This document shows positions 9,295-58,361 of a DNA stretch of 64,000 bases, piece after piece (positions within the stretch are counted from its first letter, which is position 1; each line of letters opens with the position of its first letter). The notes beneath the pieces were generated by a model. It had not been told where the DNA came from, made no database searches, and saw only the letters and a list, made by a program, of their open reading frames with translations. Both the position numbers and the translations under genes were made by a program. The stretch is from an uncultured Nitrososphaerota archaeon (GTDB lineage Archaea; Thermoproteota; Nitrososphaeria; Nitrososphaerales; Nitrosopumilaceae), in assembly GCA_963701075.1 (NCBI GenBank), contig OY969559.1, positions 1,728,001-1,792,000 of the forward strand, read 5' to 3'.

Positions 9295-9424
9295 TAGCTC
9301 TTTACAGTCTTACTTGGCCTTTTTCTTGCAGTACTTGCAATTACAATTACTACAACAATAGAAATGGCTCCAATTACTGCACAGTCAATTGGGCTCAGGT
9401 GGATGGTTGCGTTTGGAATATATG

Positions 9425-10298
9425 CAACTCATCCTAAAACCCTCCAATACATCATTATTCCAGTAATGTTAAGAAATGCCAGATAATTTTCTGCAATTCT
9501 CTCATATCTGATTCTAATTCTGTGGAATCCACATTTGAGCCATGCAAAGAATCTCTCCACCACGTATCTTGTCCTGTTGTAATTACTCTGACTTTTCTTA
9601 TTGTTGTTATTTTTGAAATTTCTGGATGGAATGCAGTCCCTGATGTTTCTATTCTTTAGATACTCTCTAATCTTTTTTGCATCATAACCCTTGTCTGCAT
9701 ATACAGCTACAATCTGTTCTATGGAATCATCATCAAGATATTCAGAGATGTTTTCCATCACATCGATGAGCTTTGTTGAATCATGCTCATTTGCAGGACC
9801 AATAATTATTGATACTGGAAGTGAATTGCAATCTACTGCAACATGTATTTTCGTGCCTGATATTCTTTTGAATCCGTCGTATCCTGTCACATCTCCCCTT
9901 TTTTGGCTGCAACAGTTGACGAATCAACCGATACCTTTTGCAGCTGTATCTTCCCTGAATGGTGTGCTGATTTTATTGCATCAGATAAGATATTTTGCCA
10001 GATTCCTTTTTGCTGCCATTTCTGCAATCTGAGATGAGCAGTTGATTTTGAGCCGTATCTTTTTGGCATCTCCTCCCACCTGCAGCCGGTAACCAGAATA
10101 AACATGATTCCATTTATTGTGGTACGGTCATCACACCTTGGTCTGCCTGTTCTGGCAGGCGATGGAAGGTGTTTTTGTATTGTTTCCCATTGTTTGTCTG
10201 AGATTTCTTGGAATTTCATGGAATCAGTGTGATTATTCCATCTGATAGATCCAGTGATCGTCAAAAATTTACTAAATGATCAGTTTTAGGATGAGTTG
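9425..10298 (-). mobile_element. IS5-family insertion sequence, 874 bp
   Basis: Perfect 16-bp TIR CAACTCATCCTAAAAC (9425-9440 / 10283-10298); 3-bp ATG duplication (9422-9424 / 10299-10301). Confidence 0.9.
9429..10264 (-). CDS. IS5-family transposase in two ORFs (9887..10264 and 9429..9890), likely programmed frameshift
   Basis: TGCRW, VDSS..AKKG, GTKIHVAVD, ADKGYD, RYVVERFFAWL motifs; AAAAAAGGGG slippery run at the junction. Confidence 0.88.
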
Positions 10299-47517: not shown

Positions 47518-48663
47518 TTATGCAATACCAAGCTCTGTAAATGTTTTGAGGGTCAGCCCGTCAGTTGATTTTAGGTTTGCAGCCCTATGCCCTACAACGC
47601 ACTCTATTCCTGCCTGTTTTGCAGAATCAATGAGCCTCTGTGTTATGATGCCGTCAAGTACGAGGTACTTTATTCCAGAACCAGGAGAGAGTTTTGCCAC
47701 TATCTCGCTTACAGGAACTTTGAATAGACTATTGAGTCCCTCATCTAGCGCTACAGCCTCTAGAGATTCATTGAGATCCGGATATACTTTTTTTACAATG
47801 TTTGCGATTGGTTCATCTTTTGGATCCTGAAGTTTTGGTTTGGCAGTTTCTTTTTTCATCTCCTCTGCTGTTTCCTTGAGAATATCTGCAATTTGTTGAG
47901 GAGTAAGTTCTTCTACCTCCACACCATCTGGTGCGCGATGAACCACGTCAACTGTTACAAGTGACTTTAATTCTTTTAAGATGAAACCGCCTGCCCTGTC
48001 CCCGTCAAGAAATGCAACTACTTTTTGCTTTGATTCACAAAGTGACTTGATGGATTCGTCAATCCTTGCACCTTCTATTGCAAGTGCGTTGTCAAATCCC
48101 GCCCTTAGAAGATTTATCACGTCTGCTCTTCCCTCAACTAGAATTACCCAAGGTGCATCAAAGACTCCTGAACCGCATGCAAGTTTTTCTTTTCCAAATG
48201 CAACAAGTTTTCCAGAAGATGTTACTTCTTGGACGTCCTTTAGCATCTCGTCTCCTTCACTAATTGTTTTGGTAGACCATTTCTGAACAATCTGTTTTGC
48301 TCTGTCAACAATCTCTTTCTTTTTGGCAGAACGAACATCCTCTATTGCTTCCAGTTTAAAGTTCGCCTGGAATGGGCCCACTTTATCGATGCTTTCTATT
48401 GCAGCTGCAATTAGTGCGGCAGTATTGATATCAGTACTCATAGGAATTAAGGCATCGCCTTTTGTTTGATTAGTCGTGCTCGTAGTGTTGACCTCGATTC
48501 GTCCTACTTTCGAGACTTTCTGAAGTTCATTTAGGTTCATCTCTGGACCAAGCAGACCTTCTGTTTGGCCAAAAATAGCGCCTATGATATCGGCTTTTTC
48601 GACGAGTCCATCTACGTCAAAGCTGAGCTTAACGTGATACTTGACAATTCCACTATATGGCAA
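47518..48663 (-). CDS. dnaG: archaeal DnaG-like primase
   Basis: GAIFGQTEGLLG, VEGRADV, FLDGDRAG, DGIITQRL. Confidence 0.93.
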   Translation of the reverse strand: MPYSGIVKYHVKLSFDVDGLVEKADIIGAIFGQTEGLLGPEMNLNELQKVSKVGRIEVNTTSTTNQTKGDALIPMSTDINTAALIAAAIESIDKVGPFQANFKLEAIEDVRSAKKKEIVDRAKQIVQKWSTKTISEGDEMLKDVQEVTSSGKLVAFGKEKLACGSGVFDAPWVILVEGRADVINLLRAGFDNALAIEGARIDESIKSLCESKQKVVAFLDGDRAGGFILKELKSLVTVDVVHRAPDGVEVEELTPQQIADILKETAEEMKKETAKPKLQDPKDEPIANIVKKVYPDLNESLEAVALDEGLNSLFKVPVSEIVAKLSPGSGIKYLVLDGIITQRLIDSAKQAGIECVVGHRAANLKSTDGLTLKTFTELGIA

Positions 48664-48728
48664 ATCATTATCCTCTTAATTTTTTATCAATTAACATTCT
48701 TCAGGGGCAGATATAAGTGCTTATTGTC

Positions 48729-50006
48729 GGTTCTGTCAACTTGATGGCTCATGACAGGCATGTAAACTTTTTATGATATATCACAATTACCTTCTTCTTA
48801 AGAAGATCAGAGATATCAAAAGCCTGCCGTGCTATCAGTCAAGTGTGCAACACAGAATCATCGCTGTACCGAGATTCTACCAGTGATGAAGGATTTCAGG
48901 TTTGTCGTAAACGAGGCAATAAGGCTAGGTATCGAACATGATATCACATCTAGATTTAAACTGCGTAGTCTTGTCTATCCAAGGTTCAACAAGACGATGT
49001 ATTCCGGATATGTCCAAACTGCAATCTGGAAGGCTTGTGCCATGCTCAAAAACTATCGTCGAGCAAAAAAGAAGAATACGAGTGTAAAGATACCATTTAT
49101 GAAAAGATGCATACTTGTAATTGATAACCAGAGATACGAACTGGTCTACAACCATCTCAAGTTTCCGGTTAGACCAAGACAGTTTGTCTACATCCCTCTC
49201 AATCACTATACCTGTAATGTTTTGTTGCAACCAGGTCTGAAACTAGGAGAGGTTACATTAACTGATAGAAAATTATCCATATCTTATACAAGAGAGATGC
49301 CAAGAAAGGAACCGGCTGTATGCATTGGAATTGACATGAACCTTGAGAACGCAACTGGCACGGACGAAACAGGCACCACTACGGTACTAGACATGTCTGA
49401 TATCGTATCAATGAAAGTAAGATACAGAGATGTACTGTCACACTTTACAAGAAACGATGCCAGAATACAGAAGAGACTCAAACAAAAATATGGCAAGAAA
49501 CAAAAGAACAGAGAAGATACATTCCTGCACCAGAAATCAAGGGAGATTGTATCGCAAGGCAGACAGGTCATAATGGAGAAGCTCACTGGAATGCGAAAAC
49601 TGTACAGAAAGGGAAATGGTCAGGGAAGAATATTTAGGTTCAGACTAAACTCGTGGTCAAGATTCAAGCTGCAGCGACAGATTCAATACAAGTCGGTTGA
49701 CTGGAACAGCCTTGAAGTGATTTTTGTAAAACCAAATGGGACCTCATCGAGGTGTGCGGCATGTGGGTCTAAAATGATACCCGAAGAGCACCGAGTGATG
49801 AGATGTCCGACCTGTCGTATTACGATAGACAGGGATGTAAACGCCAGCAGAAACATTCTGGCTAGAGGCTTGGCAATGCTGGAACAGAAAGTGCCAGCAC
49901 GGTTCGAGCCTGACGCAGTGCAAGGTGAAGCGATGAAGCAGTTCAAAGATGTGGAGCAGATTGCACCGAGTCTACTTGTTGGATGAGCCATCAAGTTGAC
50001 AGAACC
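48729..50006 (+). mobile_element. 1278-bp TIR/TSD-bounded element encoding only TnpB
   Basis: Perfect 24-bp TIR GGTTCTGTCAACTTGATGGCTCAT (48729-48752 / 49983-50006); 8-bp duplication TTATTGTC (48721-48728 / 50007-50014). Confidence 0.92.
48829..49986 (+). CDS. tnpB: TnpB-family RNA-guided endonuclease
   Basis: RuvC-I IGIDMN, RuvC-II IMEKL, zinc finger CAAC/CPTC, RuvC-III DRDVNASRNI. Confidence 0.92.
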   Translation: MLSVKCATQNHRCTEILPVMKDFRFVVNEAIRLGIEHDITSRFKLRSLVYPRFNKTMYSGYVQTAIWKACAMLKNYRRAKKKNTSVKIPFMKRCILVIDNQRYELVYNHLKFPVRPRQFVYIPLNHYTCNVLLQPGLKLGEVTLTDRKLSISYTREMPRKEPAVCIGIDMNLENATGTDETGTTTVLDMSDIVSMKVRYRDVLSHFTRNDARIQKRLKQKYGKKQKNREDTFLHQKSREIVSQGRQVIMEKLTGMRKLYRKGNGQGRIFRFRLNSWSRFKLQRQIQYKSVDWNSLEVIFVKPNGTSSRCAACGSKMIPEEHRVMRCPTCRITIDRDVNASRNILARGLAMLEQKVPARFEPDAVQGEAMKQFKDVEQIAPSLLVG

Positions 50007-50024
50007 TTATTGTCAGATCCTCGT

Positions 50025-50390
50025 TCAAGAGTACAAAGACAGATCCTCGATATGTCGTGCCTTGCCTTTTGTTATCTTGATCAATCTTCGTCTAAATGAG
50101 AGATCTACAGTCATGCGGTGCTCAAGGTGTGAGACTGTCCTTTTAGTAAGATATGCCCCCTTCCTGTCGTAATCAAAAAGTACAATCAGTTTCTTGAATT
50201 TTGGCATCGAGTCTACAAATTTTACCAGGCCCTTGAAGCTGTGAAACTGGCAGATCCTGCCAGAAAAGCCAAGTTCTCGTAGTGCTTCTTCGTCTTTTTT
50301 TCCCTCCACTGCTACAATACAGTCCTTTTTTGAATTAAGAGAATGGATGAAATGGTGTAACTCTGATATCTCAGATTCATCAAGATGCAT
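50025..50390 (-). CDS. small TOPRIM-domain protein
   Basis: VEGKKD and FDYDRKG motifs. Confidence 0.85.
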   Translation of the reverse strand: MHLDESEISELHHFIHSLNSKKDCIVAVEGKKDEEALRELGFSGRICQFHSFKGLVKFVDSMPKFKKLIVLFDYDRKGAYLTKRTVSHLEHRMTVDLSFRRRLIKITKGKARHIEDLSLYS

Positions 50391-57177: not shown

Positions 57178-57205
57178 AAACTATTTTAGGGTTACGTATT
57201 ATAGT

Positions 57206-58290
57206 TAGGAGTTACGCAGTTGACCTTCACAAGATAGCCTAAGGATTCATTCCATAAATCTTAGATCCAAGACGATCCCCTCTTTGCAATGAACCAATCA
57301 AGATGTGATGTACTAGACTACATACAGTTCCTCATAGCATCCCAGAAGACCTTTACATGTACAGAGGCTGCAAGATGCCAGCCCGTGGAGCTGTACAAAA
57401 TCCCATCCCATGACTCCTTTACGCGCCTTCTACAACGACAGACTCAAGACACTGAGACGGTTTGGAAGGAAGCAAAGGCAATGATAGGAAGCGGGGGTGT
57501 TATTGTAGTCGACGATACCACTCTTGACAAGCCGTATGCCTCAAAGATGGACCTTGTAACATGGCACTGGAGTGGCAAGCACAGATGTGTGGTCAAGGGA
57601 ATAAACCTCATCACGCTTCTGTGGACAGATGGAAAAAAGCGCGTACCGTGTGATTGCAGGATCTACGACGCACCTGTCACAGGTCTTACAAAGAACGACC
57701 GCTTCCAGGAGATGCTGGTAAAGGCCAGGCAGAGAGGCATGAATCCGCTGTATGTGCTCTTTGACAGTTGGTACTGCAGCATTGGAAACCTCCATCTTGT
57801 CGCAAAGCTTGGATGGTATTTTCTGACAAGGCTGAAAAGCAACAGGACTGTCAGTCTGAAAGATGGTAAGAACGTGTCAGTGAGTAGCATGGAAATACCA
57901 AAGCATGGAAGAACAGTCTACCTCAAAGAGTACGGAACCATAAAGGTATTCAGGACAGTTTCCAAAAACGGAGACGCTGAGTACTGGGCAACAAACAATC
58001 TGTCAATGAATGCGGTAAGAAGGGAGGAGCTTGAAAAACATGGATGGTCAGTAGAGGTGTATCACCGTGGAATCAAGCAGTGCTGTGGTATTGAAAGGTC
58101 GCATGTCAGAAAGGCAAGATCGATAATCAGTCACATACTCTTGTCTGTCAGGGCTTTTCTGCGTCTTGAGGCATACCGGATAGAGACAGGGACGAGCTGG
58201 TATGAGGCAAAGAGTGCCATAATCCGGTATGCGATACGGAACTATCTATCCCGTCCGTTCTGTCATTTGGGCTCAACTGCGTAACTCCTA
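57206..58290 (+). mobile_element. IS701-family insertion sequence, 1085 bp
   Basis: 18-bp TIR TAGGAGTTACGCAGTTGA (57206-57223 / 58273-58290); 5-bp ATAGT duplication (57201-57205 / 58291-58295). Confidence 0.9.
57289..58284 (+). CDS. IS701-family DDE transposase
   Basis: VDDTTLDKPY, FDSWY, WSVEVYHRGIKQ motifs. Confidence 0.9.
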   Translation: MNQSRCDVLDYIQFLIASQKTFTCTEAARCQPVELYKIPSHDSFTRLLQRQTQDTETVWKEAKAMIGSGGVIVVDDTTLDKPYASKMDLVTWHWSGKHRCVVKGINLITLLWTDGKKRVPCDCRIYDAPVTGLTKNDRFQEMLVKARQRGMNPLYVLFDSWYCSIGNLHLVAKLGWYFLTRLKSNRTVSLKDGKNVSVSSMEIPKHGRTVYLKEYGTIKVFRTVSKNGDAEYWATNNLSMNAVRREELEKHGWSVEVYHRGIKQCCGIERSHVRKARSIISHILLSVRAFLRLEAYRIETGTSWYEAKSAIIRYAIRNYLSRPFCHLGSTA

Positions 58291-58361
58291 ATAGTATTGT
58301 AATATATATAAAAAATATAGATTAGTGTTTCATAAATCAAGATTGTATCAATGCTTCACGC

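Follow-up and report, generated by a model that had tools for sequence, protein, structure and literature searches.

A TnpB-only archaeal element with IS6-type inverted repeats and an 8-bp target-site duplication

The window analysed here, a 64,000-nucleotide stretch of genome G000 (a single contig of 1.9 Mb) from a soil ammonia-oxidising archaeon, carries a 1278-bp element lying between a dnaG-like Toprim gene (47518-48663, reverse strand) and a small Toprim-domain gene (50025-50390, reverse strand). The element is bounded by a 24-nt inverted repeat whose arms are 100% complementary, and an exact duplication flanks it on both sides. The features of the locus are as follows.

48721-48728, no strand: left copy of the target-site duplication, TTATTGTC, single in G006 and G013, where the site is unoccupied
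48729-48752, forward strand: left terminal inverted repeat, GGTTCTGTCAACTTGATGGCTCAT, of IS6 type (GG tip, G7, CTGT), which also bounds IS6-transposase elements in G014 and G011
48768-48781, forward strand: A/T-rich, TATA-like stretch upstream of tnpB, a possible promoter judged by reading the sequence
48829-49986, forward strand: tnpB, 385 aa, GTG start, the only long ORF of the element, with its TGA stop (49984-49986) within the right repeat
49983-50006, reverse strand: right terminal inverted repeat, complementary to the left arm at every position
50007-50014, no strand: right copy of the target-site duplication, TTATTGTC

At up to three mismatches the 24-mer has exactly two matches in the window, compared with 0.00 expected from 100 shuffles. 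A seeming ninth matching base (C) belongs to the right repeat as its final base, which leaves a duplication of 8 bp. The perfect repeats, the exact duplication and the length of the element are thus as the first-pass annotation had described them. That annotation had also proposed that relatives might hold the unoccupied site with a single octamer, and that movement was recent. Such empty sites were found in G006, where the flank is 97% identical, and in G013 (88%): they read ...AAGTGC TTATTGTC AGATC..., uninterrupted and with the octamer present once. Because both relatives carry this uninterrupted site, the element is a true insertion, and the vacancy of the site in the 97%-identical relative marks the movement as recent.

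The reading of the sole gene as a tnpB with the RuvC acidic residues and zinc finger was borne out by profile searches and by alignment. The protein matches Pfam Cas12f1-like_TNB (PF07282; 1.7e-16, 60.6 bits, cut-off 26.3) and NCBIfam guided_TnpB (NF040570; 104 bits, cut-off 100), and its PDB matches are TnpB, Cas12f and TranC (E 7e-9 to 1e-4). All 18 aligned relatives conserve RuvC residues D169, E250 and D336 and zinc-finger residues C309, C312, C326 and C329. The invariant triad and zinc finger, together with a dN/dS of 0.19-0.27 among the three intact tnpB copies of G000, support the view that the nuclease is active.

G000 contains four full copies of the element (87-91% identity to the window copy). 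Two of the four have a perfect 8/8 duplication and one a 7/8 duplication, all with distinct sequences, whereas the remaining copy is a pseudogene and lacks a duplication. The three intact copies occupy unrelated sites and their duplications are intact even though dS between copies is 0.24-0.45, from which it follows that they inserted after diverging. The copy at G000:243783 is lacking in G013 between conserved flanks, at a junction that has diverged so that the octamer is unreadable there, and searches of G006, G013 and G011 returned no orthologous flank for the 170124 copy.

The same architecture extends well beyond this genome. The end word, the repeat pair and the duplication were scored in a fixed set of 80 loci encoding TnpB relatives. 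The word GGTTCTG stands at the right end of 69 of the 80 loci (control word, 33/80), a repeat pair is present at 24 (control, 2), and a pair with an 8-bp duplication at 15 (control, 0). Allowing at most one mismatch in the duplication, we collected 36 unique elements with both repeats and a duplication, namely the window copy and 35 others, from Nitrosotalea, Nitrosopumilus, other Nitrososphaeria and Bathyarchaeia. These elements span 1209-1356 bp, and none is long enough for a transposase plus tnpB. Relatives share GGTTCTG-type ends and 8-bp duplications down to a TnpB identity of about 34-35%; the repeat sequences co-diverge with TnpB, and the duplications differ between elements. Additionally, a metagenome scan with a 22-mer returned nine stretches, including one complete element of another subfamily with ends 1277 bp apart and a 7/8 duplication, which was left out of the count of 36. 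The first-pass annotation had anticipated further TnpB copies with different 8-bp duplications, which G000 and its relatives supplied, and had allowed that close homologues might lack the repeats; relatives at 34-74% identity keep both repeats and duplications. At the level of sequence, the pairing of IS6-type ends with TnpB is not a one-off and is widespread in related archaea.

It could be argued that the copies are immobile relics whose TnpB now serves the host, perhaps in RNA-guided regulation, with no current transposition or homing. The 9-13% difference between the G000 copies would suit such a history, as would the many relatives that keep the right end only (compare the counts for right word and repeat pair above) and the little recent mobility that archaeal TnpBs generally show in the account of PMC10691335. 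Against this stand the window copy itself, with perfect repeats and duplication at a site that is empty in a closely similar relative, the insertion of the three intact copies after their divergence, and the intact catalytic residues, whereas domesticated TnpBs are described as typically inactivated (PMC10691335). We consider immobility very unlikely.

The ends point to the kind of transposase that would move the element. Published descriptions of the IS6 terminal consensus give G1, G2, G7 and a cTGT motif (PMC7986276; PMC6807381), and GGTTCTGTCAAC... has the GG tip, the G7 and the cTGTt/caaa motifs; with the 8-bp duplication, these features uphold the earlier assignment of the ends to the DDE/IS6 type. 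An autonomous transposase with the same repeat, which the first-pass annotation had suggested looking for, was found in two genomes. In G014 the inverted repeat, at 21/24 and 22/24 identity, bounds a 2336-bp element encoding a 455-aa IS6-family transposase (PF13610, 8e-15; NF033587, 122.1 bits, cut-off 125), a copy without a duplication. In G011 the same repeat bounds a 2478-bp element with an IS6 transposase (PF13610, 2e-17) and an 8/8 duplication. A search of 63 genomes of the genus with the 24-mer, at up to three mismatches, gave matches in 18, and the reversed control word matched in none; among the 18 family genomes that have a TnpB relative, a relative of the partner transposase is found in 11. 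The partner transposases are about 455 aa long, have N-terminal zinc-binding domains (NF050000, NF048018) and are encoded by an ORF that runs into the repeat. A SWIM-like zinc-finger motif was also read in them by eye, and an unknown passenger ORF accompanies them.

Within G000 there is one intact IS6 element, of 2278 bp, with its own 8-bp duplication TGTTTGAA (8/8) and a transposase scoring 129.7 bits against NF033587 (cut-off 125). As a mover of the present element this resident copy is an unproven candidate, its ends being only 16-17/24 identical to those of the element (7 of the first 8). Near-identical ends occur in genomes other than G000, namely G014 and the unpublished G011. G000 also holds decayed IS6 fragments and a solo repeat, 22/24 identical. 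The possibility that the solo repeat at G000:168583 closes off an autonomous element was rejected: no transposase is present up to the 170124 copy, and the intervening 1.5 kb holds HicA-like and RmlD-like genes, as read from their translations.

The transposases of the familiar TnpB-bearing families were not found: profile searches of the 1.9-Mb G000, run with positive controls, returned neither a Y1 transposase (PF01797) nor a serine recombinase (PF00239). The other multi-copy insertion sequences of G000 are IS5-like (nine copies) and IS4/IS701-like (four copies); their copies are 99-100% identical, which indicates that both are active, and their ends are unrelated to those of the element. 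IS1595 elements, too, make 8-bp duplications. It is conceivable that one of these DDE families (IS1595, IS5-like or IS4/IS701-like) moves the element and that its likeness to IS6 ends is coincidental, with the near-identity of the resident IS5-like and IS4/IS701-like copies in favour. However, the differing ends led us to reject these two as movers, the same 24-mer at both ends together with a transposase was found only with IS6-family enzymes, and the best NCBIfam model for the partner is IS6. The sole IS1595 match was to NF050000, the model of a shared zinc-binding domain at the N terminus, and PF12762 was absent from the Pfam hits. A mover from outside IS6 is highly improbable on this evidence.

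An IS6-type transposase gene is absent from the element, and only the partner elements carry one. Because tnpB is its only gene, the element is classed as a non-autonomous IS6 derivative and not as an insertion sequence, in line with the non-autonomous status first proposed for it; for its movement it probably depends on a transposase gene at another place. What can be read directly in the DNA is the insertion with its footprint, for which action in trans by an IS6 transposase would account. Bacterial IS6 members form cointegrates and not simple insertions, and the IS26-like members are described as copying in via cointegrates (PMC7986276). Hence, a simple insertion here would need a resolution step.

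The 3' part of tnpB and the right end of the element contain a candidate guide RNA, whose parts are listed here.

49894-50006, forward strand: candidate omega-RNA scaffold, overlapping the tnpB 3' end and reaching the element tip, proposed from remnants, low divergence and covariation (35 elements)
49917-49967, forward strand: putative long-range helix, 49917-49923 with 49961-49967, GUGCAA/UUGCAC here, with 95.9% of cells paired and 6/7 pairs changed on both sides
49970-50000, forward strand: putative terminal stem-loop, 49970-49982 with 49988-50000, loop AUGAG, 91% paired and with 5/6 pairs changed on both sides
50007-50026, forward strand: predicted guide template (duplication and right flank), from the geometry and the description in PMC13565253, if the omega-RNA reads through the tip

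Truncated remnants without tnpB keep the terminal 75-130 nt of the element, and the final 135 nt of the ORF differ at 2-8 positions, compared with a core divergence of 9-14%. Over 35 elements, a structure of 28 pairs in five helices, partly drawn by eye on the same sequences that were used for counting, is 82% paired compared with 31-41% when slid. Changes on both sides of a pair occur in 158 cells compared with 22-50 when slid, and none of 500 shuffles reaches any of the measures. Two of the five helices align poorly (57-68% paired), and the inner extension of the terminal stem was read from the sequence. The covariation appeared only with the diverse set: an alignment confined to close copies gave none (term +0.18). 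A single-sequence fold of the 3' 160 nt is unexceptional (z -0.72), and Rfam returned no family, only three chance-level matches (E 0.74-7.5). A search of sequencing runs found no RNA run containing the sequence; the three soil runs that it did find share 5-11% of its words and are probably DNA. A structured omega-RNA at the tnpB 3' end and element right end is thus a candidate supported by covariation.

The 3' arm of the terminal stem coincides with the inner bases of the right inverted repeat, and its changes track the variation of the repeat. This overlap shows one DNA sequence with two apparent roles, the right repeat serving both the transposase and, as predicted, the guide RNA. It also bears on how the element arose. 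An IS200/IS605-type solo tnpB might once have landed by accident in an IS6-derived MITE, in which case the repeats and the duplication would belong to the MITE. MITE-like elements of IS6 type with related ends do exist, for example as a 644-bp end pair in G005, and two IS6 MITEs are catalogued (PMC7986276). Accidental nesting is already contradicted, however, by the recurrence of the architecture in TnpBs of 34% to 100% identity with co-diverging repeats and different duplications, by the tight packing that leaves only 76 nt between the left repeat and the start codon and places the stop codon within the right repeat, by a terminal RNA stem that pairs and covaries with the repeat, and by a genome without a Y1 transposase. 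We accord it a negligible probability.

A further feature lies immediately outside the element.

48716-48720, forward strand: TAM-like motif AGTGC directly 5' of the left duplication, A-R-T-G-Y in the subfamily, of putative function

In the subfamily of the window copy, A-R-T-G-Y is present at that place in five of five independent insertions. Among the 36 elements, T-R occupies positions -2,-1 on the left in 28 and on the mirrored right in 11 (Fisher 1.2e-4), where flank composition predicts about 0.19; the mirrored side, at 31%, is somewhat above background. The motif differs by TnpB subfamily, being ARTGY in one and WTR in another. As a control, five autonomous IS6-type elements were scored, and T-R stands on just 2 of their 10 sides; two of 30 loci had yielded a GGTTCTG-type pair with a duplication, and a further three came from 20 multi-copy loci (G201, with a different repeat). 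The T-purine position is where a TAM must lie for the empty site to be cut, and so fits homing on the unoccupied allele. This position-specific flank motif is the one line of evidence that points to TAM-dependent, guide-dependent cleavage.

Of course, the motif may be no TAM at all. An asymmetric preference of the transposase, or small-sample bias, could produce it, with TnpB adding nothing to targeting or persistence; the excess on the mirrored side is in keeping with this, the motif is short and was defined after looking at the data, and the control is small. Part of the signal may indeed stem from the transposase, through a weak symmetric preference for its targets. Nevertheless, since the two ends are identical, a palindromic preference would be expected of the transpososome, whereas the two sides differ; the motif occupies the exact place required of a TAM relative to the orientation of tnpB and the guide, and it varies with the TnpB subfamily. 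We regard an origin of the motif independent of TnpB as rather unlikely, though it deserves real weight.

Taken as a whole, the observations are best explained, with a probability that we put at about 85%, by a member of an archaeal IS6-type lineage whose transposase has been replaced by an OMEGA module and which is moved in trans and homes. An OMEGA module (tnpB and guide-RNA scaffold) would occupy the place of the transposase gene within an IS6-type (DDE) transposon. An IS6-family transposase supplied from elsewhere would recognise the 24-bp GGTTCTG... repeats and insert the element with an 8-bp duplication. Module and transposon are fused, in that the right repeat holds both the tnpB stop and the 3' arm of the predicted terminal stem. 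The omega-RNA of IS605 and IS607 elements is described as reading through the element tip into the flank as guide (PMC13565253); a read-through transcript past the tip would here carry the duplication and right flank. The nuclease would then cut only the unoccupied allele, which presents the TAM, the single octamer and the right flank. The occupied site would be spared: at the right junction ...AGAACC stands before the full target in place of the TAM, and the left junction keeps only 8 nt of the target. Repair from the occupied copy could write the element into the empty allele, amounting to homing. Because IS6-type elements are thought to copy in and not to excise, TnpB would act here as a drive for spreading or retention and not as a device for repair after excision.

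Several known systems resemble parts of this arrangement. The capture of a TnpB by a DDE element, which the first-pass annotation had put forward as a prokaryotic parallel to Fanzor, is real in its architecture but less new than that annotation implied: prokaryotic TnpBs in DDE transposons with symmetrical ends were described in 2023 (Altae-Tran et al., PNAS; PMC10691335; summarised in PMC13565253), and the same paper reports that solo TnpBs can be mobilised in trans (PMC10691335). The branches described there share with our element a prokaryotic TnpB, symmetrical inverted ends and dependence on a DDE transposase. As far as their main-text description goes, they are set apart by the features found here, namely a transposase outside the element, IS6 as partner and a putative last guide-RNA stem that is the repeat. 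Branches DDE-2 to DDE-6 are named, IS630 (DDE-6) being the only family named in the main text (PMC10691335); IS6, IS240 and IS26 are absent from that main text as whole words, and the transposases of DDE-1 to DDE-5 may be named in the supplements. ISL2, IS630 and IS1031 are the TnpB-linked DDE families given in a 2026 review (PMC13565253). We found no literature report linking TnpB to IS6. What appears to be new is the IS6-type partner, TnpB within DDE transposons having been known since 2023.

The archaeal 'IS6-like' branch (PMC7986276; PMC6807381) shares with the element its GG tips, G7, CTGT and 8-bp duplications, and the partner transposase matches IS6 models; the element differs in having 1278 bp and no transposase, IS6 members measuring about 800 bp. 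In its available text the IS6 review records two MITEs, a single passenger-carrying member and no TnpB cargo (PMC7986276), and Harmer and Hall suggest that archaeal IS6 members may merit their own family (PMC6807381). The IS1341 group of IS200/IS605 is similar in that tnpB is the only gene, in that a guide-RNA scaffold, here a candidate, overlaps the tnpB 3' end and stops at the right tip, and in that a TAM and a guide, both predicted here, come from the left and the right flank respectively. However, IS200/IS605 elements are described as having subterminal hairpins, no inverted repeats and no duplication, and as needing a Y1 TnpA (PMC13565253; PMC3119063), whereas here there are 24-bp repeats and an 8-bp duplication and G000 has no Y1 gene. 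IS607, with a serine-recombinase TnpA, no repeats and no duplication, likewise differs from an element with both repeats and duplication in a genome where PF00239 was not found.

A further likeness is offered by the Fanzor proteins of eukaryotic TIR transposons (Bao and Jurka 2013, PMC3627910; PMC13565253), nuclease cargo of duplication-making DDE transposons whose duplication and left neighbour must also be reconciled with a TAM. The parallel drawn in the first-pass annotation stands as regards TnpB as cargo of a DDE transposon. It fails as regards the layout of the protein: Fanzor is described with the RuvC-II glutamate six residues before the zinc finger and with a eukaryotic or viral host (PMC13565253), whereas this archaeal protein has the canonical layout, E250 lying 59 residues before the zinc finger (C309), and shows no sign of Fanzor descent.

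IS6 is the family best known for copy-in cointegrate formation. The current rationale for TnpB is restorative homing, in which the nuclease cuts the scar left by scarlessly excising IS605 and IS607 elements (PMC13565253), and the 2026 review, in the text available, holds that OMEGA modules rarely pay off in DDE transposons and never in non-excising elements (PMC13565253). An old, widespread and still mobile TnpB lineage with IS6-type ends is a natural test of the restorative-homing rationale, and the one-sided TAM-like motif beside the duplication makes non-restorative homing directly testable. The finding also provides an annotation rule, GGTTCTG-type ends with 8-bp duplications delimiting many 'orphan' archaeal tnpB genes, and supplies compact pairs of TnpB and candidate omega-RNA with defined 3' boundaries.

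It is tempting to extend this reading to the whole clade in Nitrososphaeria and Bathyarchaeia, as obligate IS6-type cargo in which the repeat is the last guide-RNA stem and persistence occurs mainly at a T-purine TAM. We offer this extension tentatively, as a possibility somewhat short of even odds. Were it true, TnpB would be a true homing (gene-drive) nuclease acting on empty alleles, in contrast to the role in repair after excision proposed for IS605/IS607, and OMEGA modules would fit any transposon that leaves a TAM-compatible left flank.

A lone tnpB near dnaG, bounded by 24-bp inverted repeats and an 8-bp duplication, had been claimed in the first-pass annotation, and a repeat search together with ORF reading recovered all of these features. 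At up to three mismatches the 24-mer occurs at just two sites in the window, where none is expected (100 shuffles).

The TnpB element and its neighbours in the window
47518-48663, minus strand: dnaG-like gene, on the strand opposite to tnpB
48721-48728 and 50007-50014: target duplication TTATTGTC, abutting the outer side of each arm
48729-48752: left inverted repeat arm, 24 nt, 100% complementary to the right arm (repeat search)
48829-49986, plus strand: tnpB ORF, 385 aa, GTG start, sole long ORF of the 1278-bp element
49983-50006: right inverted repeat arm, 24 nt, 100% complementary to the left arm (repeat search)
50025-50390, minus strand: small Toprim-domain gene, the other neighbour, likewise opposite to tnpB

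The ORF matches Pfam Cas12f1-like_TNB (1.7e-16) and NCBIfam guided_TnpB (104 bits vs a cut-off of 100), and its product also matches solved TnpB, Cas12f and TranC chains in the structure database. The RuvC acidic triad and zinc finger previously read from the sequence hold: D169, E250, D336 and each of the four cysteines of the finger show no variation among 18 aligned relatives (33-58% identical).

The TnpB element is a real, recent insertion. Two congeneric genomes have the site uninterrupted, as the empty-site check proposed earlier had envisaged; the flanks, 97% identical in G006 and 88% in G013, meet there over one TTATTGTC. Further copies with different duplications, also sought on that proposal, are present in the source genome, G000, which holds four full-length copies; the other three are 87-91% identical to that in the window.

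Full-length TnpB elements in G000
1776729-1778006: window copy, duplication TTATTGTC, 8/8, intact
243783-245058: second copy, duplication GTCAAATA, 8/8, intact
170124-171403: third copy, duplication TAATCTTA / TAATCTTG, 7/8, intact
1701532-1702808: fourth copy, without duplication, three stops in frame, one repeat lacking 1 nt

The three intact tnpB genes show purifying selection (dN/dS 0.19-0.27), and their sequences indicate a TnpB that is intact and under selection. Their repeats and duplications have decayed far less than the dS among them (0.24-0.45); hence, the intact copies diverged before inserting. The copy at 170124 has a solo repeat (23/24) 1.5 kb upstream (G000:C1:168583-171403, outside the window), with HicA-like and dTDP-4-dehydrorhamnose-reductase-like genes, read from translations, in between; intramolecular transposition of the IS6 type may have left this layout as a remnant, or it may be a pseudo-compound arrangement.

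A transposase gene is absent from the TnpB element, and an autonomous transposase with the same repeat had been suggested as its partner. Sister genomes do encode cognate IS6 transposases in elements that share these ends, and G000 has a diverged one. Within three mismatches the 24-mer is found in 18/63 genomes of the genus, and the reversed control word in 0/63. In G014, two repeats that match the one in the window at 21 and 22 of 24 positions lie 2336 bp apart, and the element they delimit encodes a 455-aa protein and a 295-aa ORF; G011 carries a 2478-bp element of the same layout with a perfect duplication. The G014 (455-aa) and G011 transposase proteins match PF13610 DDE_Tnp_IS240 (8e-15 and 2e-17, respectively), and for the G014 protein, the one scanned, the best NCBIfam model is 'IS6 family transposase' (122.1 bits). 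The one intact transposase relative that G000 encodes shares 79% identity with the G011 protein and reaches 129.7 bits with the NCBIfam IS6 model (cut-off 125); the repeats of its element are just 16-17/24 identical to those of the TnpB element, and ~0.9 kb beyond that element come a solo repeat (22/24) and fragments of decayed transposase genes. The G011 genome, on which the autonomous G011 element and its duplication rest, is unpublished; the partner argument stands without it, on the elements of G014 and G000. Profile searches of G000, in which positive controls worked, returned no Y1 (PF01797) and no serine-recombinase (PF00239) match.

Other insertion sequences in G000
1816906-1819183 (588-2865 of sequence stretch L136), outside the window: autonomous IS6-type element, 2278 bp, duplication TGTTTGAA
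window 9419-10298, minus strand: IS5-family element, 880 bp, ORFs 9432-9890 and 9890-10264, two-ORF frameshift-type transposase (DUF4096 and DDE_Tnp_1)
window 57205-58292, plus strand: IS4/IS701-like element, 1088 bp, ORF 57289-58281, 331-aa DDE transposase (DDE_Tnp_1, DDE_5, ISC1217-like)

The insertion has IS6-type ends and an 8-bp duplication: its GG tip, G7 and CTGT fit the terminal features set out, together with 8-bp duplications, in the parts of two IS6 accounts drawn on here (PMC7986276, PMC6807381). There is a further likeness in layout, since the tnpB stop codon lies inside the right inverted repeat and the G011 transposase ORF extends into its own repeat, which encodes …VSHQLDRT.

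Two other abundant G000 insertion sequences each have one copy in the window. The IS5-family element has 9 copies at 99-100% identity and was therefore active very recently; the IS4/IS701-like element, with ~20-bp inverted repeats (TTAGGAGTTACGCAGTTGA...), has 4 copies at 99.8-100%. Both are out as partners because the TnpB element has unrelated ends. Another long inverted repeat, GATTCCGTCAACTGGAATTTTTTC (23/24), bounds a 1356-bp stretch outside the window (G000:C1:1547451-1548806) and continues 8 nt further outward.

The autonomous G000 element (1816906-1819183) carries, upstream of the transposase, a 265-aa ORF that looks membrane-anchored and coiled-coil; at the equivalent position the G014 and G011 elements have unrelated-looking ORFs of 295 and 341 aa. 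NCBIfam gave no match for the passenger ORFs of G000 and G014, the two scanned, and the sole Pfam match for those of G014 and G011 was sub-threshold (G011 ORF, RhoGEF, E 0.005). At autonomous element ends (stretches L039, L040, L046, L047, L053, L054, L056, L058), the inner repeat motif TGTCAACTGTCGGCTCAT recurs 10-20 nt inward of the terminal repeat, possibly as an additional site for transposase binding; the left end of TnpB elements has no such subterminal copy. A 325-bp repeat at G000:C1:1198369-1198693 and 1820112-1820434 (92.6% identical, outside the window) begins with the IS6-type terminal repeat and spans a small membrane-protein-like ORF; decayed IS6-type elements may have left it behind as passenger DNA.

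A tnpB bounded by repeats and a duplication is not a one-off. Among 201 sampled family genomes, 18 contain TnpB relatives (E <=1e-30) and 76 transposase relatives (E <=1e-40), with both in 11 of the 18. We examined the best 80 loci returned for a profile built on 18 clade members, including Nitrosotalea, Nitrosopumilus, Nitrosotenuis, other Thaumarchaeota and Bathyarchaeia.

Terminal features among the best 80 loci
GGTTCTG word (<=1 mismatch) at right end: 69/80; reversed control word 33/80
Inverted-repeat pair of at least 13/20: 24/80; reversed control word 2/80
Pair plus 8-bp duplication (<=1 mismatch): 15/80; reversed control word 0/80

In a wider scan with a looser core (<=2 mismatches), 40 of 141 gathered candidate entries, duplicates between collections included, passed. 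Removal of duplicates left 36 unique elements of 1209-1356 bp, every duplication different; one, G011_C59, comes from the unpublished genome. Across the elements the repeat keeps its first 7-8 nt unchanged, and its inner part varies by TnpB subfamily.

The last 135 nt of the tnpB ORF show 2-8 differences among the G000 copies, whose cores diverge by 9-14%. Covariation was absent in an alignment of close copies alone, and the single-sequence fold of the 3' end was unexceptional (z -0.72). When 35 diverse elements, a set excluding that of G011, were aligned over their final 150 nt, RNAalifold gave two helices in which 11/13 pairs hold pairing through two-sided changes. A five-helix, 28-pair structure, partly drawn from the sequences it was scored on, has 82% of cells paired vs 31-41% with partners slid, and 158 cells with two-sided changes vs 22-50 slid; 0/500 shuffles match any measure, and two of the five helices are badly aligned (57-68% paired).

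Principal stems of the 3' structure
49917-49923 with 49961-49967: long-range stem, 95.9% paired
49970-49982 with 49988-50000: terminal stem, 91% paired, 3' arm formed by the right repeat's inner half

The long-range stem reads GUGCAA/UUGCAC in the window and CUUCCA/UGGAAG or UCCGCA/UGCGGA elsewhere; beyond the terminal stem come AGAACC and then the flank. Rfam gave no match for the 3' region. Judged from these alignments, the 3' structure is conserved and covarying, takes in the right repeat, and is a candidate guide-RNA scaffold fused to it. Three truncated remnants (L108 285-424; L111 399-538, minus strand; L038 740-879, minus strand) retain just the terminal 75-130 nt (the scaffold region) and the right repeat, joined to unrelated host DNA; these may be adjacent-deletion products or free-standing scaffold copies.

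In IS605 and IS607 elements, as outlined in part of a 2026 review (PMC13565253), the guide RNA reads through the tip. Read-through here would make the guide the octamer (the 8-bp duplicated target) plus right flank, so that the sole full target after non-element DNA would be the empty site, and the TAM, the motif 5' of the TnpB target, would be the bases directly 5' of the left octamer. In the window subfamily, A-R-T-G-Y stands there in 5/5 independent insertions (AGTGC, AATGT, AATGC, AATGT, AATGC). The flank motif is one-sided: among the 36 unique elements T is at -2 in 28 and a purine at -1 in 31, and T-R lies left of the octamer in 28/36 (27/35 without G011_C59) vs 11/36 in mirrored form on the right (Fisher 1.2e-4), flank composition giving an expectation of ~0.19. 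In a small control set, five autonomous IS6-type elements with duplications, T-R is on 2/10 sides. That this short motif, found by inspection, is TAM-like is suggestive, at roughly even odds. Its own nuclease would spare the occupied locus: at the right junction ...AGAACC would precede the target in place of the TAM, and at the left just 8 nt of target would be left.

TnpB in DDE transposons with symmetrical ends, and a trans-mobilisation proposal, are already known: the portion of Altae-Tran et al. 2023 used here (PMC10691335) ties TnpB branches to DDE transposases, naming IS630, notes symmetrical ends and proposes trans-mobilisation of solo TnpBs. IS6, IS240 and IS26 are not whole words in its main text. 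For TnpB-bearing DDE elements, the part of the 2026 review consulted lists ISL2, IS630 and IS1031 (PMC13565253), and the IS6 accounts, in the parts used, record two MITEs, one passenger-carrying member and no TnpB cargo (PMC7986276, PMC6807381). Full-text literature searches found, among the papers listed, none on a TnpB-IS6 link (judged by title and abstract) and none for TnpB, Thaumarchaeota and insertion sequence together. New here are the IS6 partner family, the repeat-guide RNA fusion, the TAM-duplication geometry and the clade breadth.

We propose that the TnpB element would be mobilised in trans, that transcript read-through past the tip would form the guide, that TnpB would cleave the empty allele and that recombination would copy the element into it. 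Bacterial IS6 members form cointegrates and need resolution, according to the part of the IS6 literature drawn on (PMC7986276); a simple insertion here would presumably call for such a step. The point of interest is that, if archaeal IS6-type enzymes also copy in, restorative homing would be ruled out as the role of TnpB here.
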